45,507 nucleotides of DNA from Candidatus Kaiserbacteria bacterium RIFCSPLOWO2_01_FULL_50_24 (GCA_001783335.1 MFLU01000019.1:1-45507), one strand, 5' to 3'. Shown: positions 1 to 17,448, counted from the stretch's first letter. Made by a program: numbers and translations. The notes: a model not told the origin generated them from the letters alone.

Positions 1-72
1 CTCGCCTTCGGCGAGGATTTCACGGGGTGTAAGAGTTTCTAAACTCGTTATTACTCGTTAAGAACCTCTAAC

Positions 73-264
73 ATGAAAAAAACCGACCTAGCAAAATATT
101 CCGTTTCCGACTTACACAAGGAGGTTGCCGAAAAGCGCTCAGCGCTTCGCACATTTCGTTTTGGTGGCGCAGGTAGCCGTACACGGAACGTCCGAGAGGG
201 AAGAGAACTGCGCAAGAATATCGCTCGCCTTTTAACAGAAGTTGCCTCGCGAAGAACAAAATAG
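73..264 (+). CDS. rpmC: 50S ribosomal protein L29
   Basis: 63 aa, LRTFRF...RELRKNIARLLT motif; directly upstream of rpsQ. Confidence 0.93.
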   Translation: MKKTDLAKYSVSDLHKEVAEKRSALRTFRFGGAGSRTRNVREGRELRKNIARLLTEVASRRTK

Positions 265-283
265 TACCATGGTGAGTCTTCCT

Positions 284-523
284 ATGAGTGATACAGAAAA
301 AGGCAAAGTATTTTCCGGCGTTGTGGTAAAAAGCGCCATGAAAGACACGGCAACGGTTGCGGTGGAGCGCTATGTAAAGCACCCGAAATACAAAAAGTAT
401 ATTCGTCGCACTAAGAAGTATCTTGTGCACGACGTTGGCAACACGGCTCTAATCGGTGACAAGGTTATGATTCGCGAAACGAGGCCCATATCCAAGCGTA
501 AGTATTTTACTCTAGTGAGATAG
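284..523 (+). CDS. rpsQ: 30S ribosomal protein S17
   Basis: GVVVKSAMKDT...HPKYKK...HD...ETRPISKRK; start could be 269. Confidence 0.96.
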   Translation: MSDTEKGKVFSGVVVKSAMKDTATVAVERYVKHPKYKKYIRRTKKYLVHDVGNTALIGDKVMIRETRPISKRKYFTLVR

Positions 524-566
524 CTTGCATTTCTACGAACTACGTTCTACACACTATCCTATCCCT

Positions 567-938
567 ATGCTCCAAGATCGTTCCATCGTTCAAATAGCAG
601 ACAACTCCGGCGGTATAACCGGTAGGGTGTTTAAAATTCTCGGCGGGACACGGAAACGTACTGCCGAAATAGGCGACGAACTCGTCCTTTCTATCCAGAC
701 CGCACAGCCAAGAAAATCGGTGAAAAAGAAAGACATACACCGCGCGGTGGTTGTGCGCCAAACCAAGGCGTTTCGTCGCAAAGACGGTTCTTACATACGA
801 TTTGACGAGAACGCCGTAGTCTTGGTGGAAAAAGACAAAAAAGAACCCAAAGCAAATCGCGTATTTGGGCCTATTCCTCGCGAGGTGATCGAGCGCGGGT
901 ATCAAAAAGTAGCGTCGCTCGCGCCGGAAATCTTATAA
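567..938 (+). CDS. rplN: 50S ribosomal protein L14
   Basis: ADNSG, RRKDGSYIRFDENAVV, RVFGPIPRE, SLAPEIL; ATG at 567. Confidence 0.97.
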   Translation: MLQDRSIVQIADNSGGITGRVFKILGGTRKRTAEIGDELVLSIQTAQPRKSVKKKDIHRAVVVRQTKAFRRKDGSYIRFDENAVVLVEKDKKEPKANRVFGPIPREVIERGYQKVASLAPEIL

Positions 939-940
939 GT

Positions 941-1252
941 ATGCGTATAAAAAAAGGCGATAAAGTCATAGTTACTGCCGGCAAAGACCGCGGGCACACA
1001 AGCACGGTTATTCGCGTTTTACCACGCAAAGACCTTGTTGTTGTGGAGGGCGTTAATGTGGTGAAAAAACATCAGCGTCGTACCGCAAAAAGCCGCAAAG
1101 GCCAAATCGTTTCGCGGCCGATGCCGGTGCATATCTCTAATATTATGATTATTGACCCAAAGTCCGGAAAACCGACACGCATCAAGATCGTTCGTGGAGA
1201 GGACGGAATGCGGAAGCGCGTGGCCGCAAAAAGCGGACAAGAACTAAAATAG
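941..1252 (+). CDS. rplX: 50S ribosomal protein L24
   Basis: IKKGDKVIVTAGKDRG KOW motif, VEGVN, PVHISN. Confidence 0.97.
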   Translation: MRIKKGDKVIVTAGKDRGHTSTVIRVLPRKDLVVVEGVNVVKKHQRRTAKSRKGQIVSRPMPVHISNIMIIDPKSGKPTRIKIVRGEDGMRKRVAAKSGQELK

Positions 1253-1281
1253 TACGTAGTTAGTAGTACGTAGAACGTAGT

Positions 1282-1827
1282 ATGAAAACAGAAACAAGCC
1301 AGAACAAAATATTCAATGCTTTGAAAGCGGAGCTTGGTTATACTAATCCGATGCAGACGCCTCGGGTGGAAAAGGTGGTGGTTTCTTCGGGTGTCGGCAA
1401 AATAAAAGATCAAAAACGCCGCGATTTTATAGCGGAGCGGCTTGCGCGCATCACGGGCCAGCGCGCGGCACCCCGTGGTGCCAAAAAAGCAGTAGCGAAT
1501 TTCAAAAGCCGCGTGGGCGATGTTGTCGGTTTCCAGGTAACACTGCGTGGGAAGTACGGCGAATCGTTTTTGCAAAAGCTTATCCATATTGTACTCCCAC
1601 GCGTAAAGGATTTTCGTGGCATCAAGCCGGACTCCATAGACGAAATGGGGAATATCACCATTGGTCTGAAAGAGCACACGGTGTTTCCGGAAACCTCGGA
1701 CGAGGACTCAAAGGATGTTTTTGGCCTCGCCGTAACCATCGCCACAACGGCAAAAAATAAAAAAGAAGCCGCGGCGTTTTTACGTCACCTCGGTCTTCCG
1801 CTTCGGGAAGCAGAAGTAAACAAATAA
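1282..1827 (+). CDS. rplE: 50S ribosomal protein L5
   Basis: PRVEKVVV, ITGQ, VTLRG, LPRVKDFRG, FPE motifs. Confidence 0.97.
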   Translation: MKTETSQNKIFNALKAELGYTNPMQTPRVEKVVVSSGVGKIKDQKRRDFIAERLARITGQRAAPRGAKKAVANFKSRVGDVVGFQVTLRGKYGESFLQKLIHIVLPRVKDFRGIKPDSIDEMGNITIGLKEHTVFPETSDEDSKDVFGLAVTIATTAKNKKEAAAFLRHLGLPLREAEVNK

Positions 1828-1900
1828 TCGCTTCGCTCATATCGCATATTCGCTCACCAATCGTGAAAGCGAGCGTTCACGATATTGCTCGCTATCGGCG

Positions 1901-1935
1901 ATAAAAAGATGACCACCGCAAGGTGGTCGTTTTCT
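1901..1935. terminator. probable bidirectional intrinsic terminator
   Basis: gatgaccacc-gcaa-ggtggtcgtt hairpin with A-run before and T-run after, between convergent rplE and the antisense ORF. Confidence 0.6.
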
Positions 1936-1936
1936 G

Positions 1937-2179
1937 TCAGGCGCAGCAATTTTTCTTTGGCGAGGGGCGGTGTTGCACAATATAGCGAATGATTTCCGTT
2001 AAATCGGATGTAGGTTTCAGGTACGTGCCTTTTTGCAGCCATAAAAATCTATATCGATAGGTGGTAAGCTCTACTTTCTGCGAGGCACGTATCGCTTTGT
2101 CCACCAGTTCGGTATCGCCGTTGGCAAGAAAATTCAACTTGTCAAAAAGCTCGCTTGTTTGCCGCGACATGACCCGCAT
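1937..2179 (-). CDS. hypothetical 80-aa protein, antisense within the spc operon
   Basis: ATG at 2179 preceded by GGGGAG SD, own sigma70-like promoter and terminator. Confidence 0.6.
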   Translation of the reverse strand: MRVMSRQTSELFDKLNFLANGDTELVDKAIRASQKVELTTYRYRFLWLQKGTYLKPTSDLTEIIRYIVQHRPSPKKNCCA

Positions 2180-2205
2180 TGGAGGCTCCCCTGTTTCTGG
2201 CGAAT

Positions 2206-2267
2206 AGTATATCACGGGAGGCAGGCAGGTACAATAGGTTGACTTTGTAGAATGTGTTATGTATATT
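2206..2267. promoter_or_regulatory. divergent sigma70-type promoter pair
   Basis: minus strand TTGTAC-17nt-TATACT with TG extension (2234..2206); plus strand TTGACT-17nt-TATATT (2239..2267). Confidence 0.6.
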
Positions 2268-2444
2268 GACCTTGCCTCGTTGGGGGCCTTGTTTTTGAGT
2301 GATCCTGGTGCGCTGGGATATCGCAGGAACAAGGTCACGCAGGGAAGCGCCATAACTTTTGCCGCAAGGTATGAGTGCAGGACTTCCGGCTCCTCCTTTT
2401 GGGCAACCCCTCGACTCCGCTCGGGGTAAAACTCTTCGAGTTTT

Positions 2445-2630
2445 ATGGCAAAAAAATCACTCATTGCGAAGGCAAAAAGAACGCCGAAGTTTTCGAGCCG
2501 CACGGTGCGGCGCTGTTTTAAGTGCGGTCGCCCGCGCGGCTTTATGCGCACGTTCAACCTGTGCCGCATTTGTTTTCGCGAAGAAGCTCTCGAAGGCCAT
2601 ATACCAGGCATAAAAAAATCCTCATGGTAA
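2445..2630 (+). CDS. rpsN: 30S ribosomal protein S14, Zn-binding short type
   Basis: 61 aa, [10 protein letters not shown]...LCRICFRE...IPGIKKSSW. Confidence 0.97.
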
Positions 2631-2860
2631 TGTTTCAAATTAAAAATTAAAAGCGAAAAATGAAAAACGACAACGAAAAATTAAAAGTTAGACCCAAGGG
2701 TACCCTCGATGGGAATATAAACCGGCGCACCGGTTTCCGGCTCCTCGGCTCGGAAATGCAAAAGAGTACTTTTGCATTTCGCTCGCCCTACGTCGCCAGT
2801 AGCTTTTAACTTTTGACTGTAATTTTTACCTTTTCGTTTTTACTTTTTCATTTATTTAGT

Positions 2861-3250
2861 ATGGATCCTGTCGCAGACCTCATTGTTCGTCTTAAAAATG
2901 CCGGCGCGGCTGGCAAGCAGTCGGTTTCCATACCGTTTTCAAATTTAAAGAATGCCATTGCCGAAAAGCTGCAGGATGCGGGGTATGTTCAGGCGGTGGA
3001 AAAGAAAGGAAAGAAGGTGCGAAAAACTTTGGATATTACGCTAAAGTACGACGAGTCTGGCGCGCACGTTATTCATGACGCACGCCGCGTCTCGAAACCC
3101 GGTCGTCGCGTGTATAAAAGCGTTTTGGAGATTGTGCCGGTTCGCTATGGCCATGGGGCGCTTTTTCTGTCTACACCAAAAGGCATAAAGACCGATAAGG
3201 AGGCGCGTCAAGAGAAAGTGGGCGGTGAGGCACTTTTTGAAATATGGTAA
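2861..3250 (+). CDS. rpsH: 30S ribosomal protein S8
   Basis: MDPVADLIVRLKNA, RVSKPGRRVY, LSTPKG, GGE. Confidence 0.97.
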   Translation: MDPVADLIVRLKNAGAAGKQSVSIPFSNLKNAIAEKLQDAGYVQAVEKKGKKVRKTLDITLKYDESGAHVIHDARRVSKPGRRVYKSVLEIVPVRYGHGALFLSTPKGIKTDKEARQEKVGGEALFEIW

Positions 3251-3310
3251 GCTTCCGCCCACGATTTGGAGTTTGCGAAGCGAATTTCAAATCGTGGGTT
3301 GCGGAAGCTT

Positions 3311-3367
3311 ACCCTGTGAAATCCTTGCGCGAAGCGCAAGGACGCCCTTCGGGCGATTTCACAGGGT
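3311..3367. repeat. three-way-junction palindromic repeat (family A variant)
   Basis: ACCCTGTGAAAT...ATTTCACAGGGT enclosing two small hairpins. Confidence 0.8.
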
Positions 3368-3419
3368 GGAAGTTGTTTAGTAAAACTTATGAACACTAGT
3401 GAATTAGTCGCACTTAATA

Positions 3420-3475
3420 ACCCCAGTGAAATGCCGCTTTGCGGCTCCTCGCCTTCGGCGAGGATTTCACGGGGT
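3420..3475 (+). repeat. three-way-junction palindromic repeat (family A)
   Basis: ACCCCAGTGAAAT...ATTTCACGGGGT; 3' half identical to 1..28; near reverse complement of 17332..17387. Confidence 0.85.
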
Positions 3476-3593
3476 GTATGCCAAAGGCATATCGTGTCTT
3501 CGCTCGCGTATCATGAAAGCAAGCTTTCGCGATTCCGCTCGCTAGACACGATAAGATTTGCTAAGCTCGCTACGCTCGCTAAGAATCTCTAAC

Positions 3594-4136
3594 ATGTCTC
3601 GTCTTGGAAAACTTCCGATACCAATCCCCGCGGGAACAACCGTGTCTGTTTCTGACGGCGTAATAACCGTGAAAGGAAAAGGCGGGACCTTGTCTCGCGC
3701 TCTCCACCCGGCGATTTCCGTTTTCGTGGGAGAAAAAGAAGTGGTGGTGGCATTGGTAGCAAAAACGCGTCTCGCTCGCGCACTGTGGGGAACGTACGCG
3801 GCACATGTTCGCAATATGGTGTTAGGTGTCACGACACCGTTCGTAAAGAAACTCCAGATAGAAGGTATTGGATACAGGGCGGAACTTACGGGTTCGTCTC
3901 TGAAACTATCGGTTGGTTTTTCGCATCCGGTTCTCGCACCAGTTCCGCAAGGACTTTCCGTATCGGTAGAAAAGAATATAATCACCATCTCCGGTGCCGA
4001 TAAAGAATTAGTTGGTTCATTTGCGGCGGAGGTCCGTAGTATTAAAAAGCCGGAGCCATATAAGGGCAAAGGCATTCGGTACGAAGGCGAGATTGTTCGT
4101 GAGAAACAGGGCAAGAAAGCGGTGGTGGCCGCCTAG
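3594..4136 (+). CDS. rplF: 50S ribosomal protein L6
   Basis: MSRLGKLPI, GIGYRA, GFSHP, KPEPYKGKGIRY. Confidence 0.98.
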   Translation: MSRLGKLPIPIPAGTTVSVSDGVITVKGKGGTLSRALHPAISVFVGEKEVVVALVAKTRLARALWGTYAAHVRNMVLGVTTPFVKKLQIEGIGYRAELTGSSLKLSVGFSHPVLAPVPQGLSVSVEKNIITISGADKELVGSFAAEVRSIKKPEPYKGKGIRYEGEIVREKQGKKAVVAA

Positions 4137-4194
4137 GAAAGCAGATCAAATATCAAAAAGCAAAAATCAAAATGACAAACCAGAATGAAAAAGT

Positions 4195-4545
4195 ATGAAA
4201 ACGAATACGTCAAAAATTCAGCAACGTACGCGACGACACCGGAGGGTGCGGGCCAAAGTTTCAGGCACTGCGGTACGTCCGCGTTTGTCCGTATACAAGT
4301 CAAACATGCGGTTTGTTGCACAGATTATTGACGATGAGCGCGGGCAAACGCTCGCGGCCGTGTCTTCCTCCAAAGAAAAAGGCAAGACACCTCAAGAACG
4401 CGCAGAGAGTGCGGCGAAAACTCTTGCAAAACAGGCGCACGAGAAGGGAGTAGAGTCGGTAGTATTCGACAGAGGCGGATTTAAATATACAGGCACTGTT
4501 AAGGCGTTTGCAGATGCCGCGCGCGCTGCCGGATTACGATTTTAA
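4195..4545 (+). CDS. rplR: 50S ribosomal protein L18
   Basis: RPRLSVYKSN, AQIIDD, VVFDRGGFKY. Confidence 0.97.
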   Translation: MKTNTSKIQQRTRRHRRVRAKVSGTAVRPRLSVYKSNMRFVAQIIDDERGQTLAAVSSSKEKGKTPQERAESAAKTLAKQAHEKGVESVVFDRGGFKYTGTVKAFADAARAAGLRF

Positions 4546-4723
4546 GAAAAATAACGAGCGTTAGCGACTATATTTTTCTTAATCCTGCACCTTTTACCAA
4601 ACTATGGACAACATTACTCACAACATGATTTCACAGTACTATTCAATCTCAAACAGCGTTTCTCGCATGAAAGGTGCTGGGTGTAAGATTCTCTAATTCA
4701 TTTCATTCATAACAAAATCTAAC

Positions 4724-5317
4724 ATGGATAAAGACACGACAACACAGAAAAAAGATGGTGCGCATGGTCAGGCTCCGGGGACGGGCTCTACTGAAATGGC
4801 ACATGCGTCCGAGCGGCGAGCATATGTGCCACGCGAGAGTCGCGGTCGAATTCCACGCGGAAAGGGGCGTGGGAGGGATGACCGGCGAAGCGAGTTTGCT
4901 CAAAAGCTCATAGGGATTCGCCGCGTTGCGCGTGTTATGGCCGGAGGGCGTAGGTTTAATTTCAGTGTTGCCATGGTTCTCGGCGACAAGAAGGGGCGCG
5001 TTGGAGTCGGCGTAGGTAAGGCGGCAGACACCGCGCTTGCGATTGAAAAAGCAATGCGCGACGCGAAGCGCAATATGATTACGGTGCCTCTCACGGAAAA
5101 CAAAAGCATTTCACATAACATCGAGGCAAAGTACTGTGCCGCAGTTGTAGAGATACGCCCGTCGCCGGGGCGCGGACTTGTGGCAGGCTCTTCAGTACGA
5201 GCCGTTTTAGAACTCGGCGGCATTACTGATATAACGGCAAAGATCCTTTCGCGCAGTAAAAATTCGATTAACAATGCGCGCGCGGCGATTGAAGCATTGC
5301 GTAAGATCACGAAGTAA
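4724..5317 (+). CDS. rpsE: 30S ribosomal protein S5
   Basis: RRVARVMAGGRRFNF, GRVGVGVGKA, GLVAG. Confidence 0.97.
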   Translation: MDKDTTTQKKDGAHGQAPGTGSTEMAHASERRAYVPRESRGRIPRGKGRGRDDRRSEFAQKLIGIRRVARVMAGGRRFNFSVAMVLGDKKGRVGVGVGKAADTALAIEKAMRDAKRNMITVPLTENKSISHNIEAKYCAAVVEIRPSPGRGLVAGSSVRAVLELGGITDITAKILSRSKNSINNARAAIEALRKITK

Positions 5318-5325
5318 ATCTATGA

Positions 5326-5570
5326 TATTCCAATCTACAAATCATACGAATACTGCGAATGGCTATGAATTTACAAAAAGCACCAAATTCCAAGCACCAA
5401 ATCACAAACAAACCACAATGACCAAAATTCAAAGCACAAAACAGAATGCGTTTGGGACATTGGTATTTGGAATTTCGGTATTGTTTGGAATTTGGAATTT
5501 GGGATTTGTAATTTGTCATTCTCCTTATATTGTAACTGTTCGTATATTGGTATAAATTCGTATAATTGAC
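5326..5570. repeat. nested inverted low-complexity repeat at the usual rpmD position
   Basis: A/C-rich short-period arm (about 5385-5443) and G/T-rich complementary arm (about 5450-5515), nested in a second pair (tacgaat / attcgta). Confidence 0.7.
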
Positions 5571-5578
5571 ACATCCTT

Positions 5579-6037
5579 ATGCAGCTACACGAATTACAAA
5601 GGCCCTCTGGCATAAAGCGTGCGTATCGCCGAGTGGGTAGGGGACAGTCGTCAACGCGCGGAAAGCAATCCGGACGAGGTGGTAAGGGGCAAACTGCGCG
5701 CGCTGGGGCAAAAATTCGCCCAGAATGGCGCGATATAATCAAACGGCTTCCGAAACTTCGGGGGTGGGGCAAAAACCGCAGACGTGGCGTTGTGGCTACG
5801 CGGCCACGGCCGAAGGTTGTCTTACTTTCACGCGTGGAGAAAGCGTTTAACGCCGGGGAAGAAGTAACGCCGCGAACACTTCTTGAGAAAGGACTCATAC
5901 GCGGTGTTGGCGTATCATCACTCGTAAAAATAATCGGAAATACTCTGGTTACAAAAAAGCTTCTGCTGAAAAATATCGCCGTTTCCAAGCAAGTGCGTGC
6001 GGCGATAGAGAAGGTGGGTGGCTCTATTACTGCATAA
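5579..6037 (+). CDS. rplO: 50S ribosomal protein L15
   Basis: RVGRG..RGKQSGRGGKGQTAR, RLPK, IEKVGG. Confidence 0.96.
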   Translation: MQLHELQRPSGIKRAYRRVGRGQSSTRGKQSGRGGKGQTARAGAKIRPEWRDIIKRLPKLRGWGKNRRRGVVATRPRPKVVLLSRVEKAFNAGEEVTPRTLLEKGLIRGVGVSSLVKIIGNTLVTKKLLLKNIAVSKQVRAAIEKVGGSITA

Positions 6038-6043
6038 AATACC

Positions 6044-7318
6044 ATGATGGAAACATTTTTCAGAAAATTAAAACTTATCGTCAAAGACGAGACGTTGCGC
6101 GCGCGCGTTCTCTTTGTGCTCGCGGCGCTCGTTGTATTTCGCTTGCTTGCCGCGATACCGACGCCAGGCGTTGACATGAACGCCTTGAGCTCGTTTCTCG
6201 CGGACAATCAATTTTTTGGGCTTCTGAACATTTTCTCAGGTGGCGGATTTTCTAACCTTTCCATCGTGATGCTTGGGGTGGCGCCATACATTACCGCGTC
6301 CATCGTAATGCAGCTGATGACCGTTCTCATTCCGCGCCTGAAGCAGATGTATCAGGAAGAGGGAGACGCGGGGCGAATGCGATTCATGCAATACTCGCGC
6401 TACCTCACAGTGCCGCTCGCTTTTATTCAGGCCTTCGCGTTTCTCCTGCTCTTACAACAAAATGGCATAGTGCCATCGCTTGACGCACTCGCTCTCCTTG
6501 TCAACATATTCGTTATTGCCGGCGGTTCCATTCTTCTCATGTGGATTGGCGAGCTTATTTCCGAATTTGGCGTTGGAAATGGCGTGTCGCTCATAATTTT
6601 CGCAGGCATTGTGGCGAGTATTCCATCGTCGCTCGCGCAGTTCATATTCTCGTTTGACACTGCACAGTTGCCGGCATACATCGGTTTTACCGCTGCCGCG
6701 GCGATAATTACCGCGGGTGTTGTGTTCATCACCGAAGCGGAGCGTCCAATTCCCGTTACCTATGCGCGACGCGTGCGCGGGTCAAAAGTTCTCGGCGGCA
6801 TATCCACGTATCTTCCGCTCCGTGTAAATCAGGCGGGCGTCATGCCGATAATTTTCGCGCTCTCTATTCTTCTTATTCCGCAAATGTTCGCGACATTTCT
6901 TGCTAACACCTCTATTCCGTTCATAGCGGCGGGTGCCGCGGCGCTCGTGGCCGCATTTGCAAATCAGTGGGTATACGGCGCACTCTACTTCTTCTTTGTT
7001 TTCATCTTTACTTACTTTTACACGGCGATTACGTTCGAACCGCATCAGGTTGCAAAGAACCTGCAAAAGAACGGTGCGTTTATTCCCGGTGTGCGACCAG
7101 GGCTTACAACTGCTGACTACCTCGGCAATATCATTACGCGCATTACGCTTGTGGGGGCGCTTTTCCTCGGCACGCTGGCAATTCTACCACTCATTCTACA
7201 GGGTATAACGGGCATCACGGCCGTTACCATAGGTGGCACCGCGCTTCTCATTGCCGTCTCGGTTGTGCTTGATTTGGTAAAGAAAATAGACGCACAGACC
7301 TCAATTCGCGAATACTAA
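6044..7318 (+). CDS. secY: preprotein translocase subunit SecY
   Basis: multi-TM; GVAPYITASI, GVGNGVSLIIFAGI, AGVMPIIFA, FIPGVRPG, GGTALLI. Confidence 0.98.
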   Translation: MMETFFRKLKLIVKDETLRARVLFVLAALVVFRLLAAIPTPGVDMNALSSFLADNQFFGLLNIFSGGGFSNLSIVMLGVAPYITASIVMQLMTVLIPRLKQMYQEEGDAGRMRFMQYSRYLTVPLAFIQAFAFLLLLQQNGIVPSLDALALLVNIFVIAGGSILLMWIGELISEFGVGNGVSLIIFAGIVASIPSSLAQFIFSFDTAQLPAYIGFTAAAAIITAGVVFITEAERPIPVTYARRVRGSKVLGGISTYLPLRVNQAGVMPIIFALSILLIPQMFATFLANTSIPFIAAGAAALVAAFANQWVYGALYFFFVFIFTYFYTAITFEPHQVAKNLQKNGAFIPGVRPGLTTADYLGNIITRITLVGALFLGTLAILPLILQGITGITAVTIGGTALLIAVSVVLDLVKKIDAQTSIREY

Positions 7319-7384
7319 TTTGTATTCGCGAATGTGTGATTCACGAATCGCGAATCGCGAGTTATAATTCCTAAATCTTGAATC

Positions 7385-7990
7385 ATGAATCTTGAATCCT
7401 CGCATTCCAAACGAGTAGTAGTTATCGCTGGACCCGCCGGGAGCGGTAAGAATTCGGTAGTGCGTGACATCATGGGGCGTTGCTCCAATTGCGTGCGACT
7501 GGTAACTGCAACAACGCGCGCAATGCGCTCTGGTGAGCGTGACGGCGTTGATTATTATTTTTTTACTCCCGAGCGTTTTGATGAGAAAGTCGCCTCCGGC
7601 AACATTCCAGAGCACCGCTTTGTGCCCGCACTGAATGTGTTATATGGCACATATCTTCCGGACCTAAAGAAGCGTCTTGCCGAGAAAAACACAGTTATAT
7701 TTGCAACGGTAGATATTGAAGGTGCGCGGTATCTGAAAGACAACTATAATGCGACGACCATCTTCATCATGCCGGAATCTGTAGAGCAGTTCGAGGGTCG
7801 GCTTAAGGTGCGAAATCCGGAATGGTCTGATGGGGAGTTCAGGGTGCGCCAGGAAATAACAGAAAAAGAATTACAAGCGCATGCCGAGCAATACGACTAT
7901 CGTGTGGTGAACGCAGACGGGGAGTTGGAGGAAACCGTAGACGAGATTATCGCCATTCTCAAGAAAGAAGGATATAATTTAGTTGCGTAA
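7385..7990 (+). CDS. gmk: guanylate kinase
   Basis: GPAGSGKN P-loop; TTRAMRSGERDGVDYYF; YGT. Confidence 0.92.
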   Translation: MNLESSHSKRVVVIAGPAGSGKNSVVRDIMGRCSNCVRLVTATTRAMRSGERDGVDYYFFTPERFDEKVASGNIPEHRFVPALNVLYGTYLPDLKKRLAEKNTVIFATVDIEGARYLKDNYNATTIFIMPESVEQFEGRLKVRNPEWSDGEFRVRQEITEKELQAHAEQYDYRVVNADGELEETVDEIIAILKKEGYNLVA

Positions 7991-9609: not shown

Positions 9610-10880
9610 ATGAAAGTGGACGTATTGCTCGTGGGGAGCGGCGGGCGTGAGCATGCGCTTGCATGGAAGTTGAAGAAGTCGTCGCGACTCGGGAAGCTTT
9701 ATATTGCGCCTGGGAACGGTGGCACGCAGTCTGTAGGAGAAAATGTACCGATTGGGGTGATGGAGTTTGAAAAACTCGCAAAATTTGCGGAAGAAAAGAA
9801 TATCGGTCTCACGGTGTGTAGCGTGGACGATCCGCTCGTCGGCGGTATCGTTGATTTTTTCAAGCGCGCGACCTTCGCATTTTTGGGCCAACAAAAGATG
9901 CGGCTGAGATAGAAGGTTCGAAAGCATTCGCAAAGCAATTAATGCGCGACGTCGGTATTCCGACGGCAGATTTTTCAGTATTCACGAATTACGATGAAGC
10001 CATGCGGTATGTTCAGGAGAAGGGCGTTTCCATTGTCGTGAAAGCGAGCGGGCTTGCGCTTGGGAAGGGTGTTGCCGTGTGTCGTACGCTCGGCGAGGCA
10101 GAAACGGCGCTCAAGGAGATCATGCTCGACAGGGTTTTCAAGGATGCCGGCACGAAAGTCGTCATCGAGCGCTATCTCGAAGGACAGGAAGTCTCTATTC
10201 ATGCACTCTCGGATGGCAAGACGCACGTGATGTTTCCGGTGTCGCAAGATCATAAGACGATAGGAGAGGGGGATACTGGAAAGAACACGGGTGGCATGGG
10301 CGTTATCGCGCCGCTCTCGTTTGTTTCTGCCGAACTCATGCAAGAGATTGAGCGCATGATCGTGAAGCCAACATTTGATGCGCTTCGGAAAAAAGGTATC
10401 GAGTATAGCGGTATTCTCTACCCCGGCCTCAAGCTGACATCGATGGGACCGAAGGTGCTCGAATATAATGCCCGCTTCGGCGACCCAGAGTGCCAGGTTT
10501 ACATGCGACTCTTGAAAACCGATTTACTCGATATTTTGGACGCGTGCGTTGACGGCAAATTGTCGGATCAGCAGATAGAATGGAACACTGGCTTTGCCGC
10601 GAACATCGTGCTCGTCTCCGGCGGATATCCCGACGAATACAAAAAAGGATTGCCCATAACGGGCATAGGGGAAGCAGAAAAAGTTCCTGGTGTCGTTGTC
10701 TTCCACGCCAGCACGCAACATCAAGGTCCGGCCTTGATGACTGCTGGTGGGCGCGTTCTGAGCGTATCCGCAGTCGGCGCGACCTTGAAATCAGCGCTTG
10801 ACCGCGCATATGAAGCTGTCGGCAAGGTCCGCTTTGAAGGTATGTATTTCCGTCGTGACATTGGCGCTAAATCGTTGTAG
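9610..10880 (+). pseudogene. purD: phosphoribosylamine--glycine ligase, one frameshift at T-run 9855-9860 (probably sequencing error)
   Basis: VGSGGREHA, APGNGG in first frame; VKASGLALGKGV, NTGGMG, EYNARFGDPE, GGRVL, FRRDIG in second; one extra T restores GIVDFFQARDLRIFGPTKDAAEIEGSK. Confidence 0.9.
10719..10739 (+). repeat. 21-nt RAYT-associated palindrome, in frame in purD
   Basis: CATCAAGGTCCGGCCTTGATG identical to 33681..33701 and 34322..34342. Confidence 0.9.
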
Positions 10881-10901
10881 GTACGATGGTATAATTTCGT
10901 A

Positions 10902-13742
10902 ATGCCTCCGACATTTGAGAAATCGCTCGTTGCGAGCCAGGAAAAATTTAAGTCCCCGCAAGAAGAGCTGGCGTATTTGCGCGAGCGGGTGCGGGAGAAG
11001 GAGCACGCTCTTGAAAACCGCGAGCCGCTTGAGCGCGAGCGCGTGGCGCGCCGCGAGGTCGCGGTGTATGCCGAACAACATCCAGCAACTGTACTGCACG
11101 AGGAAGTAGTCATGCCGGAATATGAGAGCGTGCGCCATGCACTCGCACTTGAATCGGAAGAGCATGACGTTCAAATAGACGAGCTTTTAAGGATTGTGTC
11201 GGAGCGTGGAATCAGGAATGCACTTTCGGTAGTTGCCCGCATGAAGAATGTGCATCTTGAAGACGATCTTCACCGCGCGCTTGTGCGCTATATTGCCGAA
11301 GGTCTGCCGGAAAAAGGTCTTCCCCCAGCATATCAGGTTAACCGCGCGCTCCACCTCGTTCTTTTTGAGATTCATCCGCAGGCATACAACGGCAGAGGCG
11401 AAAACGAACAGCATAAAAAACTTGCCGAAGTGCTTGCTTCTTCAGAACAGCTCTATGCCGGTTTGCTCCCGCTCATAGGACGAAACGAAGGTTTCGCACT
11501 TGAAATCGCCGTGCCGGAAGGCACCGAAGAAGCGACTCTTTACTTATCAATTCCTAGGACGCGCCAAGCGCTAGCAGAGCGCCTCATAGCTTCGGTTTTT
11601 CCGAACGCTCACATTGAAGAGGCGCGCGGCGACTACAACATATTTAATTACAAAGGAGAGCATGCAGTCGCATATGCGACACTGAAACAGCATCCGGCGT
11701 TTCCTCTGAAAACGTACGATCAGTTTGAACATGATCCTCTTAACGTCCTTCTCGCGTCGTTCTCAAAAATAGCAAAACACGGTGAGGGTGCGGCGGTGCA
11801 AATTGTAGTGGGGAACGAGGGCGACCGTTACAACGCGCACTACAAAAAGATGATGCGCGAGCTTGAAAAGGGGCGCCATGTATCTGACGCACTTTCTGTT
11901 TCGGAAACGGCGTTTGGCGATGCGGTGCACGATTTTACAGAAGCCATATTTTTTTCTAAACAGAAAGAAGAGAAAAAAGAGCGGGAGCTTCGTCGCGGGT
12001 CCGATCAGGTTGCGACAGAGGAGATCGGGCGCAAAATCGGAAGCCGCATTGTTCCCGTGAATATTCGCATCGTGGCATCCGCCGCCACAAAAAAGAGGGC
12101 AGTGGAATTGGTGGATAATCTCGTGGCGCCGTTCAATCAATTTGACGATGCGCGCGGCAATCGCCTTCTGTTTACACACGTATCATTTTGGAGCAAAACC
12201 TCTTTCCTGCGGGATTTCACCTACCGCCTTTTTAACAATGCGACCGCGTGTCCCCTGTCGCTCGCGGAATTGACGGCAATGTTCCACTTTACCGCCGAGC
12301 GCGTTACCACCTCGCGCGAATTGAAGCGGGCGCACGCCAAACAATCGCCCGCGCCGGTTGAGATGGCGCACGACGGAATCACCGTTGGTATAAATCGCTA
12401 CGGTGCGACGGAGACCCCCGTTCTTTTTGGAGCACAAGATCGCCTGCGCCACGCCTACGTTATTGGACAGACAGGAACCGGAAAAACGGGGCTCATCAAG
12501 AACATGATTATGCAAGATATGAAAAACGGCGAAGGTGTGGCGTTCATTGATCCGCACGGAAATGATATAGAAGATATTCTCGCAATGGTGCCGCCGGAGC
12601 GCGCGCAAGATGTAATCTATTTTGATCCGGCGTATACAGCGCGCCCCATGGGGCTAAACATGCTTGAATACGATACGAATAGGCCGGAGATGAAAACATT
12701 CGTGATAGACGAAGTGTACGGTATTTTCCGCAAATTATACGCAGATATTCCGGAAGCATTTGGGCCGATGTTTGAACAGTACTACAGGAATGCCGTTCAG
12801 CTCGTCCTTGAAGATCCAGCAAGCGGAAATACTTTTTTGGAAATCCCTCGTGTTTTTGCGGATACGTCGTTCAGAAACCTGAAGCTTTCTCGCTGCAAAA
12901 ATCCTATCATCGTGCAATTTTGGAAAAAGATTGCTGAAGCGGCCGGCGGAGACCCGGCGCTTGAAAACATCGCGCCCTACATCACGTCCAAGTTTGATGC
13001 CTTTCTCACAAACGATATTATGCGCCCCATTGTGGCGCAGGAGCACTCGGCATTTAATTTTCGCGACATAATGGATGGGAAGAAAATTTTTATAGCAAAC
13101 CTCTCTAAAGGACGCTTGGGCGACCGCAACATGTCGTTGCTCGGACTCGTCCTTGTTTCAAAGTTTCTGCAAGCGGCATTTTCACGCGTGGACCCCGTTA
13201 GAAGTCAGAAAGTACAGGTTTCTGGCGGTATGTACAATGAAACTCACCTGACTTCTAACGGGGTGAATACTCGCGGTGGTAATTTACCAACGTTTTACCT
13301 CTACATTGACGAGTTCCAGAATTTTGCGACGCCCTCTATCGGTACGATTCTTTCCGAAGCGCGAAAGTACAAGCTCGCGCTCACCGTGGCGCACCAATTC
13401 ATCGCGCAACTTTCGGAAGACATCCGTGATGCGGTTATCGGGAATGTCGGCACGAAATTTTCGTTCCGTATCGGCACCACAGATGCAGAGTTTCTGGAAA
13501 AACAATTCAGCCCCATTTTCACCGCATACGACCTTGAAAACCTTCCCAATCGTCACGCGTGCGCTTCGCTTCTTGTAGACGGCGTGCCCGCACAGCCATT
13601 CACTTTGCGAACTACCGACTTGCCGCACATGGATTATGCGCGCGTGGATGCCATCAAAGAGCTTTCGCATACACAGTACGGCAGGGCCCGCGAAGAAATA
13701 GAGGAAGAGATACGCACCAAATTCCGCGAAACGCCGGATTGA
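10902..13742 (+). CDS. VirD4/TraD/HerA-like (DUF87-type) P-loop ATPase
   Basis: DRLRHAYVIGQTGTGKT Walker A, FIDPHG, LYIDEFQN Walker B, LSEARKY..L..AHQ. Confidence 0.85.
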   Translation: MPPTFEKSLVASQEKFKSPQEELAYLRERVREKEHALENREPLERERVARREVAVYAEQHPATVLHEEVVMPEYESVRHALALESEEHDVQIDELLRIVSERGIRNALSVVARMKNVHLEDDLHRALVRYIAEGLPEKGLPPAYQVNRALHLVLFEIHPQAYNGRGENEQHKKLAEVLASSEQLYAGLLPLIGRNEGFALEIAVPEGTEEATLYLSIPRTRQALAERLIASVFPNAHIEEARGDYNIFNYKGEHAVAYATLKQHPAFPLKTYDQFEHDPLNVLLASFSKIAKHGEGAAVQIVVGNEGDRYNAHYKKMMRELEKGRHVSDALSVSETAFGDAVHDFTEAIFFSKQKEEKKERELRRGSDQVATEEIGRKIGSRIVPVNIRIVASAATKKRAVELVDNLVAPFNQFDDARGNRLLFTHVSFWSKTSFLRDFTYRLFNNATACPLSLAELTAMFHFTAERVTTSRELKRAHAKQSPAPVEMAHDGITVGINRYGATETPVLFGAQDRLRHAYVIGQTGTGKTGLIKNMIMQDMKNGEGVAFIDPHGNDIEDILAMVPPERAQDVIYFDPAYTARPMGLNMLEYDTNRPEMKTFVIDEVYGIFRKLYADIPEAFGPMFEQYYRNAVQLVLEDPASGNTFLEIPRVFADTSFRNLKLSRCKNPIIVQFWKKIAEAAGGDPALENIAPYITSKFDAFLTNDIMRPIVAQEHSAFNFRDIMDGKKIFIANLSKGRLGDRNMSLLGLVLVSKFLQAAFSRVDPVRSQKVQVSGGMYNETHLTSNGVNTRGGNLPTFYLYIDEFQNFATPSIGTILSEARKYKLALTVAHQFIAQLSEDIRDAVIGNVGTKFSFRIGTTDAEFLEKQFSPIFTAYDLENLPNRHACASLLVDGVPAQPFTLRTTDLPHMDYARVDAIKELSHTQYGRAREEIEEEIRTKFRETPD
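13192..13264. mobile_element. miniature inverted-repeat element inserted in frame in the ATPase gene
   Basis: perfect 17-bp terminal inverted repeats ACCCCGTTAGAAGTCAG / CTGACTTCTAACGGGGT. Confidence 0.8.
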
Positions 13743-13816
13743 CCCACACACTTACTTTCGGTTTGCGCTTTGCGCGTTCTGGCTTTACCAGAACAAACCG
13801 AAAGTAAGTATGCGGG
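13743..13816. repeat. conserved-end hairpin element (family B)
   Basis: CCCACACACTTACTTTCGGTTTG ... CAAACCGAAAGTAAGTATGCGGG. Confidence 0.75.
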
Positions 13817-13870
13817 AGTTGCGGAGCCGCTTTAATTGTGTACACTTTCGCAGATGATTGGTAGAACGTT

Positions 13871-14944
13871 ATGAAATACGAAAAAGAATTCCCACTTTTT
13901 AAGACAAAAGTATCCGGAGTAACCCCGAAGTTTGATCTTTCAACACCCGAAGGTCGGGCCGGATATTTTGAAGCAAAAGCGGGCGAAGATATTCGCAAGC
14001 TAAAGGAGTACCTTAAAAGCCATACGTTTGTTGCCTATCTTCTTGCAAAGAAAAGCGCTGGCAAAGGCACCTATACGAAATTGATGCGGGAGATATTCGG
14101 CGACGTTATTGCCCACGTTTCCGTGGGAGACGTTGTGCGCGCAACACATCGGGTAATGGAAGATGAGTCCGAACACGCGACACGCTCTGAAATCATGGAA
14201 TATCTTGAGAAGCATTATCGCGGCTATATGTCGCTCGACGACGCGGTCAAGGCACTCCTTGGGCGCGACACAAAGAGCTTGTTACCCTCGGAGTTCATTC
14301 TTGCGCTCGTCAAACGCGAAATAGACGCGCTTCCGCGCGGTGCTCTGTTTATAGATGGTTTTCCTCGCGAACTGGATCAGGTGTCGTACGCGTTCTTTTT
14401 TCGCGACCTCGTTAACTACCGTAACGACCCGGATATTTTCATCGCGATAGATATTCCGATGAGCGTCATTGACGAGCGTATGAAGTATCGCGTGGTTTGC
14501 CCTACGTGCCAGACCCCGCGTAATGTCAAACTGCTCGCAACTAAGAATGTCGAGCATGATCAATCAAGTGGCGAGTTCTACCTGCTTTGCGACGAGCACG
14601 GAGAGCGCATGGTTGCCAAAGAGGGGGACACGGCAGGTATTGAGCCAATTCGTGCTCGCTTGGAAAAAGACGGCCAATTGATAGACAAAATGTTCTCTCT
14701 CCACGGTGTCCCAAAGATACTTTTGCGCAATGCGGTTCCGGCGGATACGGCGCTCCAATACGTTGACGATTATGAGCTTACACCCGAATACAGCTATAAG
14801 TGGGACGAAAAGAGCCAGAAGGTAACGACAAAGGAATCTCCGTGGACCATTAAGGATGACGAGGGTGTGGAAGTATACAGCTTGCTCGCTCCCGCAGTGG
14901 TCGTTGTCCTCATAAAGCAACTCGTGTCGGTCTTGAAACTCTAG
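13871..14944 (+). CDS. adenylate-kinase-like nucleoside monophosphate kinase, long form
   Basis: AKKSAGKGT P-loop variant, HVSVGD, FIDGFPR, LID-like CPTC...LCDEH. Confidence 0.7.
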   Translation: MKYEKEFPLFKTKVSGVTPKFDLSTPEGRAGYFEAKAGEDIRKLKEYLKSHTFVAYLLAKKSAGKGTYTKLMREIFGDVIAHVSVGDVVRATHRVMEDESEHATRSEIMEYLEKHYRGYMSLDDAVKALLGRDTKSLLPSEFILALVKREIDALPRGALFIDGFPRELDQVSYAFFFRDLVNYRNDPDIFIAIDIPMSVIDERMKYRVVCPTCQTPRNVKLLATKNVEHDQSSGEFYLLCDEHGERMVAKEGDTAGIEPIRARLEKDGQLIDKMFSLHGVPKILLRNAVPADTALQYVDDYELTPEYSYKWDEKSQKVTTKESPWTIKDDEGVEVYSLLAPAVVVVLIKQLVSVLKL

Positions 14945-14977
14945 TTGCATAATCGGATGGTGCTATACTAGAAAGTA

Positions 14978-15105
14978 GCGGCGGGTACAAAACCTGCAAC
15001 CAAAAAATAGGGCAGTCCGATTATCGCTGTGCGTCGTCAGAATCAAACTCGGGCGTATATGCTGTGGACTCCCACCTGGATTCATACCAGGTGCGTGCCT
15101 GCCGT
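14978..15105 (+). ncRNA. candidate structured ncRNA, 6S-like architecture
   Basis: extended -10 TGcTATACT upstream, 11-bp closing stem, central bubble, apical stem, terminator downstream. Confidence 0.45.
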
Positions 15106-15141
15106 CCCAAAAAACTTCGCTTCACGCGAAGTTTTTTGGGA
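15105..15141. terminator. intrinsic terminator
   Basis: tcccaaaaaacttcgc ... gcgaagttttttggga hairpin containing a T-run. Confidence 0.7.
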
Positions 15142-15163
15142 CTTGCTGTAGTAGTATGGAGCG

Positions 15164-15547
15164 ATGGAGCGAAAGCGGTTGTTGTATTTACAGGGCGCAG
15201 TTGCGACACTCGTTGGCTCCCTTCACCTTGTCGGCCTTGAGCATTTTTTATATTGGAAACTATGGTGGTACGACATTCCTACGCACTTTTTGGGCGGCGT
15301 ATGGGTGGCCCTCGCCTTATTGTGGGTGAGCGCGCTTCTCGGTGTGCGTATACGATGGTTTATCGTGCTTCTTGTGGTTCTTGCGGTCGGCGTTTTGTGG
15401 GAGCTTTTGGAGTTCGGAACCGGATTTACGCCTAAAGAAAACTATGCTCTTGACACCATTCTGGATCTCATCATGGATGTGGTCGGTGGTGTGTGCGGTG
15501 TGTGGGTAGTGCATACATTCAATAGCTCGCGCAGTGGTAGAATATAA
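15164..15547 (+). CDS. small 4-TM membrane protein (VanZ/DUF2238-like)
   Basis: WWYDIPTHFLGG, LWELLE, DTILDLIMD pattern. Confidence 0.65.
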   Translation: MERKRLLYLQGAVATLVGSLHLVGLEHFLYWKLWWYDIPTHFLGGVWVALALLWVSALLGVRIRWFIVLLVVLAVGVLWELLEFGTGFTPKENYALDTILDLIMDVVGGVCGVWVVHTFNSSRSGRI

Positions 15548-15549
15548 GG

Positions 15550-16251
15550 ATGGAAGAGCATACACGCGAACATGACACGCATACTGTTGTGCCGTACCCA
15601 AAAGATATGCGCGCATTTGCGCGTTATGCGCACGGTCACACGCTTTTGAAGGTCGCTGTTTCCGGCGCCGCCGTCACCGGCTATTGCGGATTGGATGTTT
15701 TTGAAAAGGCAAAAGAAATTGGGCGCGAAATCGCGCGACAAGGCGCCGCGATTGTTACCGGTGCCACAACCGGCTTTGCCTTTTATGCCACGATGGGCGC
15801 GAAAGAGGAGGGCGGATTTTCCATTGGCTTTTCTCCCGCCGCGACGGAGCGCGAGCACATGGAAGTATATAAACTCCCGCTTGATTATATGGACATCATC
15901 ATTTACACGGGATTCGGCTATGTTGGCAGAGACCTACTCATGATACGCGCATCGGATGCAGTTATTATCGGATGCGGGAGAATAGGCACCATAAATGAGT
16001 TTGCGGTAGCGTTTGAAGACAGGCGCCCCATAGGGATAGTTGACGGGAGTTGGGAAACGGATGAGATATTGAAAAACATCATCGATACGGCACATCGCGA
16101 GAATCCGCGTGTCTTTACGGATTCTGATGCAAAATCGCTTGTGGAGCACGTGATAGCGCAGGTCAAGAAAGATAAGCAAGAACTCAATTTTGTGTACAAC
16201 AGCCGTGATGGTGTGGGGGGAACGGGCAAGAACGCGGAGGTTATTCTTTAG
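15550..16251 (+). CDS. LOG/SLOG-family nucleotide-binding protein (TIGR00725-like)
   Basis: GREIA..GA.IVTGATTG, YTGFG..GRD, GRIGTINE. Confidence 0.8.
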   Translation: MEEHTREHDTHTVVPYPKDMRAFARYAHGHTLLKVAVSGAAVTGYCGLDVFEKAKEIGREIARQGAAIVTGATTGFAFYATMGAKEEGGFSIGFSPAATEREHMEVYKLPLDYMDIIIYTGFGYVGRDLLMIRASDAVIIGCGRIGTINEFAVAFEDRRPIGIVDGSWETDEILKNIIDTAHRENPRVFTDSDAKSLVEHVIAQVKKDKQELNFVYNSRDGVGGTGKNAEVIL

Positions 16252-16288
16252 CTCCTCCACTTCGTGTGTAGTTGGCGGAGCGGTAGTA

Positions 16289-16518
16289 GAACATGTCTGA
16301 AAACCCTTCGCTTCGTATGCATGTCTCTTCGGGGTCGCTGTCTGGGCTTGCTAGCCCAGCGCTCACTCTCGGCTCGTCAGCCTGCGAGAGACCCCGAAGA
16401 GACACGCCTCCTCGCTCCGGGTAAGCAAAGCTTTCCGGCAGCGCTCGTTCGGAAACGGAAAAATTCATTTTACCGTTTCGCTCACTCGTTTGCCGATAAA
16501 CAGTTTCAGGACATGCTC
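16289..16518. repeat. multibranched palindromic intergenic element
   Basis: outer gaacatgtctgaaa / tttcaggacatgctc, inner tgtctcttcggggtc / gaccccgaagagaca plus several small hairpins. Confidence 0.65.
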
Positions 16519-16522
16519 CAGT

Positions 16523-16867
16523 CTAGGAAAGTTTTTTGACGACGCGTGCAAATACTCCCGGATGGTCTTTTGCAAGCGTGGAGAGCACTTTTCTGTCAAG
16601 CGCCACGCCCTTTTTTTTGAGCACGTCTATCAGTTTTGAATATGAGAGACCATTCTCGCGGGCGGCGGCATTGAGACGCAGAGTCCACAGTTGACGCGCG
16701 TCGCGCTTTTTTGCTCTACGGTGTCTGAATGCATGTACTCCCGCGTGGAAGATGGCCTCACGCGCCACGCGTTGTTTTGTGGAGCGTCCGAAACGGTATC
16801 CCTTAACCTGCCGCAGAATGTTGCGGCGGCGCTTCATTGCAGTTGTTCCTCGTTTGACTCTACTCAT
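16523..16867 (-). CDS. rplT: 50S ribosomal protein L20
   Basis: MSRVKRG, KGYR, LWTLRLNAAAR, LDRKVLS. Confidence 0.97.
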   Translation of the reverse strand: MSRVKRGTTAMKRRRNILRQVKGYRFGRSTKQRVAREAIFHAGVHAFRHRRAKKRDARQLWTLRLNAAARENGLSYSKLIDVLKKKGVALDRKVLSTLAKDHPGVFARVVKKLS

Positions 16868-16913
16868 ATATTAGAGATTCTTAACGAATGATAATGAGTT
16901 TAGAAGCTCTTAT

Positions 16914-16967
16914 ACCCCGTGAAATCGCCGCGAAGCGGCGAGCGCCGAAGGCGCATTTCACTGGGGT
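16914..16967 (-). repeat. family A palindromic repeat
   Basis: ACCCCGTGAAAT...ATTTCACTGGGGT with two internal hairpins. Confidence 0.85.
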
Positions 16968-17001
16968 TGAGAAAAACATAGTTACCATACTCCTTAATTT
17001 T

Positions 17002-17184
17002 CTACAAAAATCTGCTTCTATCTGTGCGTGAAAAAGAGCCATTAACTCTCTGCGAACGTCGGTGGCGCTGACGCTCACTCCCGCTCCGCTTTGCGTTGAA
17101 GTGGTTGTGCCCGGCTGTGCGCGCCAAAATTTTCCCCGTACGGGTAACCTTGAGCCGCTTCAAGAACGATTTATTTGATTTCAT
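17002..17184 (-). CDS. rpmI: 50S ribosomal protein L35
   Basis: MKSNKSFLKRLKVTRTGKI...HNHF; between infC and rplT. Confidence 0.92.
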   Translation of the reverse strand: MKSNKSFLKRLKVTRTGKILARTAGHNHFNAKRSGSERQRHRRSQRVNGSFSRTDRSRFL

Positions 17185-17331
17185 GTGTTAGATTTTGTTA
17201 CGAGTTCATCCAGCACCTTTTATACACCGTGTGCTTGGTAAGGTGAAATAATACATTAGGGATTACTATTTGAATAATTTAAACTATCGCGCTTGAAAAG
17301 GTGCTGGACAGGGCGAGTTAGAAAATCTTAC

Positions 17332-17387
17332 ACCCCGTGAAATCCTCGCCGAAGGCGGGGAGCCGCGAAGCGGCATTTCACTGGGGT
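17332..17387 (-). repeat. family A palindromic repeat
   Basis: near reverse complement of 3420..3475. Confidence 0.85.
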
Positions 17388-17448
17388 TCGCAGTACTATA
17401 CAGTACCTTCTTCATTTTGCAAAAGTGGTGCTGGGCTAGCGGGCGCTT

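Follow-up and report, generated by a model that had tools for sequence, protein, structure and literature searches.

What occupies the spacers in front of six translation genes, rpmC, rplF, rpsE, map, rplT and rpmI, in the groundwater organism Candidatus Kaiserbacteria bacterium RIFCSPLOWO2_01_FULL_50_24, and do these spacers belong to the host or to an element that moves? The genes lie on contig C19, the stretch of 45,507 nucleotides (nt) that was analysed at full length and is called the window below; the genome, G000, comprises 848.8 kb in 22 contigs with about 50% G+C. The six spacers share a common plan, in which a left hairpin (L) is followed by an exchangeable core and a right module (R) that runs up to the start codon. 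We consider them probably to be copies, without an open reading frame (ORF), of a modular mobile junction element of a Kaiserbacteria-type genus in the candidate phyla radiation (CPR), acting as a self-contained intercistronic adaptor. The cassette is judged mobile because orthologous sites are empty in relatives, its copy number is patchy and variable, and full-length forms carry a gene for a GIY-YIG nuclease. Of the two possibilities raised in an earlier note on this DNA, a shared host element or a mobile element at gene junctions, the second is thus supported.

The layout that the earlier note had described for the six spacers was borne out by direct reading and by box enrichment. The box pattern TAA[GC]ANNN[CT]CTAA has 11 matches in the window, every one within the six spacers, against a mean of 0.23 and a maximum of two in 100 shuffles of the window, and 39 copies were found across the whole genome. 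The 5' motif of one type of core, family A, occurs four times in the window, where 0.06 are expected. As had also been claimed, the second box ends 1–3 nt before the ATG in the window spacers. The modules are arranged as follows.

1–29, plus strand: rpmC, 3' portion of a family A three-way-junction core that the contig end truncates; identical to 3448–3478 (family D3).
30–71, plus strand: rpmC, R hairpin (box 1, loop, box 2), ending 1 nt before the ATG at 73; the downstream gene is L29 by Pfam.
3251–3311, plus strand: rplF spacer, long hairpin right after the rpsH stop codon, with only weak palindrome-type Rfam matches.
3312–3366, plus strand: rplF spacer, family A three-way-junction core, copy 1, with the stem CCCTGTGAAAT / ATTTCACAGGG.
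3377–3416, minus strand: rplF spacer, L-type module; its opposite strand reads as the two-box hairpin TAAGTGCGACTAA ... TAAGTTTTACTAA.
3422–3474, plus strand: rplF spacer, family A three-way-junction core, copy 2.
3475–3551, plus strand: rplF spacer, small hairpin and family B core (CGTGTCT ... AGACACG).
3552–3592, plus strand: rplF, R module (pattern match), ending 1 nt before the ATG at 3594.
4543–4582, plus strand: rpsE, L hairpin that opens with the rplR stop codon (4543–4545).
4583–4683, plus strand: rpsE, family C core, with the stem CTGCACCTTTT / AAAGGTGCTGG around a variable interior.
4684–4722, plus strand: rpsE, R hairpin, ending 1 nt before the ATG at 4724.
8585–8623, plus strand: map, L hairpin with the adk stop codon (8593–8595) inside and a sigma-70-like match, TAGAAA-18-TATATT.
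8624–8701, plus strand: map, family A three-way-junction core with the second arm enlarged (folding z-score of -7.2 for 8600–8746).
8704–8742, plus strand: map, R hairpin, ending 1 nt before the ATG at 8744.
17004–16966, minus strand: rplT, L hairpin starting at the rpmI stop codon TAG (17004–17002).
16965–16915, minus strand: rplT, family A three-way-junction core.
16912–16871, minus strand: rplT, R hairpin, ending 3 nt before the ATG at 16867.
17423–17395, minus strand: rpmI, sigma-70-like match TTGCAA-16/17-TATAGT, better than the one in L of map, just 5' of the core, in the usual place of L.
17385–17333, minus strand: rpmI, family A three-way-junction core.
17330–17188, minus strand: rpmI, split R, with box 1 at 17330–17318, box 2 at 17200–17188, then CAC and the ATG at 17184.
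About 17307–17210, minus strand: rpmI, family C core nested in the loop of R.
26457–26540, plus strand: partial cassette after ftsH, L hairpin and hairpin core but neither R nor an adjoining start codon.

The rplF spacer is compound, consisting of a hairpin, two three-way-junction cores, an L-type module, a family B core and R. A cassette at this place had been reported before and is real, but its extent, given as 3377–3593, was wrong; the true spacer is 3251–3593. Its unit of small hairpin plus family B core recurs before the genes for a SET protein and a penicillin-binding protein (PBP), and at loci L067 and L107 of relatives (labels L001 to L140 denote the loci fetched and are distinct from ribosomal proteins such as L5 or L20). 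The L hairpin reported after ftsH was confirmed, and the L copies at 8585 and 17004 differ at five of about 44 positions, consistent with the 38 of 42 matches noted earlier.

R had been seen as two direct boxes. The repeats are real, but the view of them as direct repeats only does not hold, since the boxes are mutually complementary and form one hairpin. In an alignment of 42 R modules, drawn from G000, from another species (G076) and from three loci at the rpmI-rplT junction in other species, boxes 1 and 2 are the two arms of a single imperfect hairpin of about 16 pairs. In this helix 88.9% of the cells pair, compared with 76.4% in shuffles, and none of 500 shuffles reaches 88.9%. Eight pairs vary on both sides, giving a covariation score of 0.291 versus 0.097, and slid controls score at most 0.092. 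The helix outgrows the boxes: the base 5' of box 1 covaries with the base 3' of box 2 (GC in 18 modules, CG in 13, AU in five, others in four), and the next pair outward is U-A, whose A, where the spacer is 1 nt (27 of 42 modules), belongs to the ATG. Both the A and the U of the start codon are paired in 27 of the 42 copies; the 27 G-U pairs at the helix base are uninformative as to the strand because they use the T of the ATG, which is already fixed by coding. The distance from R to the ATG is 1 nt in 27 modules, 3 nt in 13 and another value in two, which carry an extra half box. R contains four TAA triplets, and the boxes are spaced 13–16 nt apart.

Genome-wide placement relative to start codons, which the earlier note had proposed as a check, is far from random. 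Among the 24 two-box hairpins of G000, 18 have the start of an ORF of at least 50 amino acids (aa) within 4 nt downstream, a condition that 7.9% of random positions satisfy; two more precede a start after an extra half box, and the remaining four are L modules read from the other strand. In G076, all 20 R modules fetched adjoin the ATG of an open frame. R is in the sense orientation to the next gene in every module examined in the two genomes. The distances from stop to start at the native coupled junctions of G000 spread from -4 to more than 20 nt, so the nearly exclusive gap of 1 or 3 nt that follows R is imposed by the element and was not inherited from the site.

Cassettes with variant R modules raise the G000 list to 29 junctions. 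Pfam confirms 26 of the downstream genes, and 12 of these encode ribosomal proteins (S12, L11, L23, L22, S19, L31, L29, L6, S5, L35, L20, and others after the window). The rest encode EF-Tu, NusG, NusB-Nudix, GroES, GroEL, DnaK, SSB, HU, GlmS, methionine aminopeptidase (MAP), a PBP, a type II secretion system (T2SS) F protein, a SET protein and two others. Such a list could point to a non-mobile cis-regulatory RNA or translation-initiation element of a host regulon of translation and chaperone genes that has diverged past recognition in relatives: the modules precede the most highly expressed kinds of genes, R is always sense and always at an ATG, its structure covaries, and the host lacks Shine-Dalgarno (SD) sites. 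However, the downstream genes of G076, assigned by reading their N-termini, are mostly different (L5, L24, S3, L10, S4, S9, L36, RpoC and ATP synthase subunits), and by reading only two of its 20 junctions, rplV (locus L061) and dnaK (locus L071), are shared with G000. In addition, known families of cis-regulatory RNA (ribosomal-protein leaders, riboswitches and ribozymes) gave no match to Rfam covariance models; only a tmRNA gene (21795–22159, 96.1 bits) and one tRNA gene (27746–27817) pass in the window, and nothing relevant was found to E = 5 in 1–18000.

The distribution of the cassette largely refutes such a regulon. The R pattern was surveyed in 116 genomes of the genus and 298 outside it, with the reversed pattern as a control that gave no match. 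It occurs in 50 of the 116, at 0–37 copies per genome, and 66 do without it; outside the genus it was found in five of 298 genomes, each of another family of the order, with nearly identical sequence. The exact family A stem was present in G000 only, among 41 genomes including 24 of the genus. At the rpmI-rplT junction of 28 relatives (L20 identity 63–74%), 14 spacers are 1–16 nt long, nine are 35–52 nt of unrelated sequence and five are 73–185 nt; R is present in three of the 28, all among the five longest. Two of these three (loci L047 and L050) have recognisable L and R modules around a different core, and at one empty site the sequence is TAA-TAT-ATG, with its right flank as in G000. The comparison of filled and empty junctions thus found empty sites in relatives, which supports mobility, and R is nearly the same in sequence between species with L20 proteins 63–74% identical. 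With nuclease-bearing forms known as well (below), a conserved host regulon is very unlikely.

At the grpE-dnaK junction, R was found in none of 29 relatives, many of which have instead a TTGACA-type promoter and an AT-rich leader. When contigs from four DNA runs were compared with 1–18000, no clean join across a deleted cassette appeared; the contig joints at 4599/4669, 8626/8694 and 17222/17297 are short-sided (20–35 letters) and probably come from other copies or organisms. Three relatives (loci L026, L034 and L053, of G022, G017 and G021) carry another junction element between rpmI and rplT, CCCCAGTACCAYA ... CTAYGGGGCAGGCG, whose stem ends CCCCAGT/ACGGGG are as in family A; an open frame of 16–27 codons begins at an ATG just in front of the element.

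The cores of the window contain no ORF, and full-length relatives suggest what has been lost. A family A-type stem (CCCTGTTAAAT ... ATTTAACAGGG) encloses a GIY-YIG ORF of 88–89 aa in G057 (L108) and G076 (L110), while a family C-type stem (CCCAGCACCTT ... AAGGTGCTGGG) encloses one of 84 aa in G077 (L107) and G076 (L109). All four units lie between L and R and adjoin the next gene, by reading those for L10, S14, S14 and a secretion ATPase. They represent four of the 13 small GIY-YIG ORFs inspected in relatives. These nuclease-bearing forms mark the ORF-less cores of the window as miniature derivatives; some short family C hairpins in G076 retain just the stem plus ...ATGAA.... Five R-rich genomes have 4–8 GIY-YIG matches each and five R-free genomes 1–3, counting one long-frame (more than 400 aa) match per genome, in a comparison of small samples picked by the feature counted.

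In several respects the cassette resembles a miniature inverted-repeat transposable element (MITE). It is small, ORF-less and multicopy, its copy number varies among relatives, and L and R serve as terminal inverted repeats. Where an autonomous transposase would be expected, the counterpart sharing L, stem and R has a gene for a GIY-YIG nuclease (no search covered the DDE families). Another possible source of mobility is the Y1 transposase. Under this explanation the cassettes would be repeats like repetitive extragenic palindromes (REP) or their doublets (REPIN), mobilised in trans by Y1 enzymes of the RAYT type (REP-associated tyrosine transposases), with the hairpins as single-stranded DNA recognition sites. 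G000 indeed has seven Y1_Tnp matches, of which six exceed the cut-off; L and R, related to each other in inverted orientation, can pair as REP doublets do, and the mosaic build recalls bacterial interspersed mosaic elements (BIMEs). However, the seven Y1-type ORFs of G000 (220–292 aa) each stand between copies of a palindrome of their own that does not resemble L or R, no two-box module lies within 300 nt of any of the 11 Y1_Tnp ORFs in G076 and G105, and the cassettes hold a GIY-YIG gene in cis instead. REP/BIME repeats moved by RAYT were thus rejected as the identity of the cassette, since its units do not flank Y1 genes, and the explanation by Y1 enzymes as a whole is highly improbable.

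The Y1 copies themselves have a REP-RAYT-like layout in a 0.85-Mb genome, as do the 11 copies in G076 and G105. The copy at 33489–34346 of the window is flanked by CATCAAGGYCGGNCCTTGATG at 33672, 34223 and 34313. Between grpE and dnaK of four relatives (L120, L133, L134 and L140) lies the palindrome TTGTGCAAGTCTGACTTGCACAA, which resembles GACAAGTCAGACTTGTC, the private palindrome of one Y1-type gene of G000 (C11), so it may be a REP-like insertion and not a heat-shock operator.

Stop codons within L terminate the upstream gene: that of adk is found 8 nt into the module, and those of rpmI and rplR form its first triplet. L and R are related in inverted orientation, for L read on the opposite strand fits the two-box hairpin pattern in five cases, and the two modules pair with each other in minimum-energy folds. 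In the family A core, the outer stem is conserved, with compensatory variants (GC in 11 and UA in five at one pair), and encloses two variable hairpins. Three-way-junction copies are also found just upstream of the 16S 5' end. Group I and group II introns, which contain endonuclease-like ORFs, interrupt the 16S gene (C16:80900–83696, C20:1–1100; loci L001–L004), and the stem of the P8 hairpin in the group I intron is almost that of family A, suggesting that the stem unit enters intron loops too. A promoter inside family C cores was considered and dropped: among the seven long cores caught by the pattern, TTGCYY-17-TATYAT occurs in sense orientation in three and in antisense in one, too few for a claim. 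A generic sigma-70 scan of 1–18000 gave 16 sites against 17.0 expected, and thus no enrichment, with only two inside cassettes.

If the cassette is mobile, does it also do something for the gene behind it? Here the host context matters. With crude gene calls (ORFs of at least 80 aa, greedy choice, 88% of the genome covered), the start-site model of G000 shows no G-rich signal upstream of starts, and SD-like words precede 119 of 827 starts compared with 77 of 827 control windows. The absence of SD sites that had been noted for the cassette-served genes is therefore true, but of the whole genome and not special to these genes. Compared by eye, the 16S tail after helix 45 reads GAAUUAUUCC, where Escherichia coli has GAUCACCUCC, and the usual CCUCC anti-SD seems to have been lost. 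The strongest words upstream of starts are TATAAT, TACAAT and TATACT, and in 205 of 821 genes a TANNNT hexamer with a TGn extension ends 7–9 nt upstream of the first base of the ATG, suggesting that leaderless mRNAs are common and heavily relied on. About a quarter of the G000 genes look leaderless by this signal. R is no more complementary to the 16S region than shuffles are; the longest matches of 7, 7 and 9 nt are reached by 100%, 99.7% and 36% of shuffles.

As leaderless-type promoters are the commonest start context and the AT-rich boxes occupy positions -14 to -2, box 2 might be read as the -10 element of an internal promoter for a leaderless mRNA beginning at the ATG; alternatively, the boxes might be attI-type recombinase sites, an analogy drawn in the earlier note. 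Yet the aligned R modules have no TANNNT ending 7–9 nt before the ATG, and the boxes, spaced 13–16 nt apart, pair together. The analogy with attI finds no support, given the same hairpin pairing, and the only tyrosine recombinase match (PF00589) in the genome lies on another contig (C1:3177–3698), beside no listed cassette. Among all the explanations considered, these two together are the least probable.

Given that R keeps a fixed 1 or 3 nt from the ATG and does not vary in its sense orientation, a built-in role in starting translation of the next gene is likely. It might be argued, instead, that the cassette is a purely selfish repeat without function, whose fit and orientation result from the insertion mechanism or target preference and from the loss of harmful insertions. 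The 66 genomes of the genus that do without R would agree with this, as would the orthologous junctions that work with spacers of 1–16 nt or with ordinary promoters and leaders, the nuclease gene in full-length forms and the thermodynamic weakness of the R hairpins. A functionless repeat does not readily account for the spacing of 1 or 3 nt in 40 of 42 modules, whereas native coupled junctions vary widely, nor for near-identical R sequences in diverged species, for covariation that maintains the helix up to the start codon, for the constant orientation, or for the 12 ribosomal protein genes among the 26 served. We regard a purely selfish repeat as unlikely.

For the mobile adaptor that we prefer, the following course of events can be proposed. 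The L hairpin would supply the stop codons of the upstream gene and is often promoter-like; the core would keep a conserved stem, with a nuclease gene inside in full-length relatives and small hairpins or short cargo here. The cassette would spread by nuclease-initiated copying and recombination between L and R modules, would be transcribed with the operon or by itself, and would survive only where the adaptor keeps the downstream, often highly expressed, gene translated. An endonucleolytic cut in or at the base of R, possibly by RNase III, would then yield an mRNA beginning a few nt from the AUG, which could be initiated in the leaderless manner; RNase III is encoded in G000 (C12:2322–2711). 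We favour such cutting only tentatively. As an alternative, the R helix at -4 to -12 could replace the missing SD duplex. That R is a portable, SD-independent start device on a mobile element, by processing to a near-leaderless mRNA or by the helix at -4 to -12, is a possible but rather doubtful proposal.

Several observations weigh against this interpretation. Folded alone, single R hairpins are weak (-3.3 to -9.2 kcal/mol, z-scores of +0.1 to -2.6), and the rplF R module in isolation folds no better than shuffles; whole cassettes fold far beyond shuffles, with z-scores of -4.4 for rplT and -7.2 for map. Counts of G-U versus A-C pairs (one versus one in the family A stem) leave the strand undecided, and the hairpins may have a role at the DNA level. 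On reading, the cassette ends show no consistent direct target-site duplication, and a TAA duplication is unsupported because the terminal TAA/TAG of both ends sit within hairpin arms. The GIY-YIG proteins are bare catalytic domains of 84–89 aa with no recognisable DNA-binding part of the kind joined to homing endonucleases, and their matches to a group I intron endonuclease model stay below the cut-off; the nuclease may thus be cargo and not the mobilising enzyme. G000 has no GIY-YIG ORF inside any cassette, only two small intact genes elsewhere (C7:21710 and C3:18274), which are also the only matches in a tblastn search for GIY-YIG remnants to E 10, so that its cores yielded none. Finally, 396 of the 827 genes, by the crude calls, have no leaderless-type promoter, coupled stop or cassette, and the idea of the cassette as the only alternative to leaderless or coupled starts is ruled out. 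Of these two genes, the one on C7, an ORF of 84 aa, lies in a perfect 19-nt inverted repeat, CCCCCACACTAATTAAGAC (C7:21660–21960), without L or R modules.

The cassette shares features with mosaic intergenic repeats and with free-standing GIY-YIG homing genes, and it fits neither fully. The BOX elements of Streptococcus pneumoniae (boxA-boxB-boxC), the Correia elements or Neisseria miniature insertion sequences (NEMIS), and the enterobacterial repetitive intergenic consensus or intergenic repeat units (ERIC/IRU) are likewise short, ORF-less, multicopy, intergenic and modular; they have pairing inverted end modules and exchangeable middles, and known cases are transcribed with their neighbours. 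In contrast to these, compared here by description only, the cassette spans stop to start exactly, is always sense, pairs the start codon in its end hairpin and has GIY-YIG relatives. The REP, BIME and REPIN repeats with RAYT of Proteobacteria are also palindromic mosaics between operon genes, with inverted doublets and Y1-type genes in the genome; the present cassettes are about 110–340 nt and not about 35 nt long, and the Y1-type genes here stand away from L and R, with palindromes of their own.

Free-standing GIY-YIG homing genes, such as the seg genes of T-even phages, likewise lie between conserved genes at sites that are empty in close relatives, as do the ORFs at L107–L110 with their empty cognate sites, and in both the start lies in or beside a hairpin. 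Unlike the seg products, the cassette proteins have no DNA-binding extension and conserved L and R modules flank their genes; the cassette also occupies many unrelated junctions per genome, and its ORF-less derivatives far outnumber the ORF-bearing form. The RNase III hairpins of the T7 early mRNA and the stem-enclosed intervening sequences of rRNA are, again, imperfect intercistronic hairpins or long stems around an insert, and in these systems cutting separates cistrons and can free the next start site. The cassettes differ in being mobile repeats and not fixed phage signals, and any processing here is putative. Full-text searching, judged on listings and the openings of abstracts, found no description of such cassettes. 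New in the present analysis are the recognition of the boxes as one covarying helix reaching the ATG, the mapping of filled and empty junctions across the genus, and the finding that family A and family C stems both enclose GIY-YIG genes.

Other junctions of the window are filled differently. Between rpsN and rpsH (2631–2862), a GC-rich centre is enclosed by long inverted arms rich in A and in T, AAAATTAAAAG ... / ... CTTTTAACTTTT. The contig depth over this filler in four metagenome runs is 114–2393, compared with roughly 10 nearby, suggesting that related sequence is very common in the community. The 617-nt gap between rplE and rpsN (1828–2444) contains a family B-like hairpin at 1830–1900, a terminator-like hairpin at 1911–1928 and an antisense ORF of about 75 aa (about 2170–1937) with GGAGCCTCC in front of it; the place before the S14 gene is taken instead by a GIY-YIG-bearing cassette in G076 and G077. 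Meanwhile, two contigs end inside near-identical cassettes, the window at 1–72 and C14 at its end (about 4969–5034), which indicates that the repeats break assembly; neither piece carries the genes that should lie between L22 (C14) and L29 (window start).

Junction-filling cassettes of this kind affect gene calling, operon prediction and assembly, and they show that genomes of less than 1 Mb tolerate an active family of such elements. Bare GIY-YIG genes, common but unexplained in CPR genomes, are now linked to a mobile unit. How translation is started inside the operons of SD-less CPR bacteria is an open question, for which the cassette offers a repeated, sequence-defined object to test: it precedes genes for EF-Tu, chaperones and ribosomal proteins, keeps its helix up to the AUG, and moves between species. 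If R does act on the start codon, either of the two modes proposed would be a new way of starting translation inside operons, spread horizontally among ultra-small bacteria.

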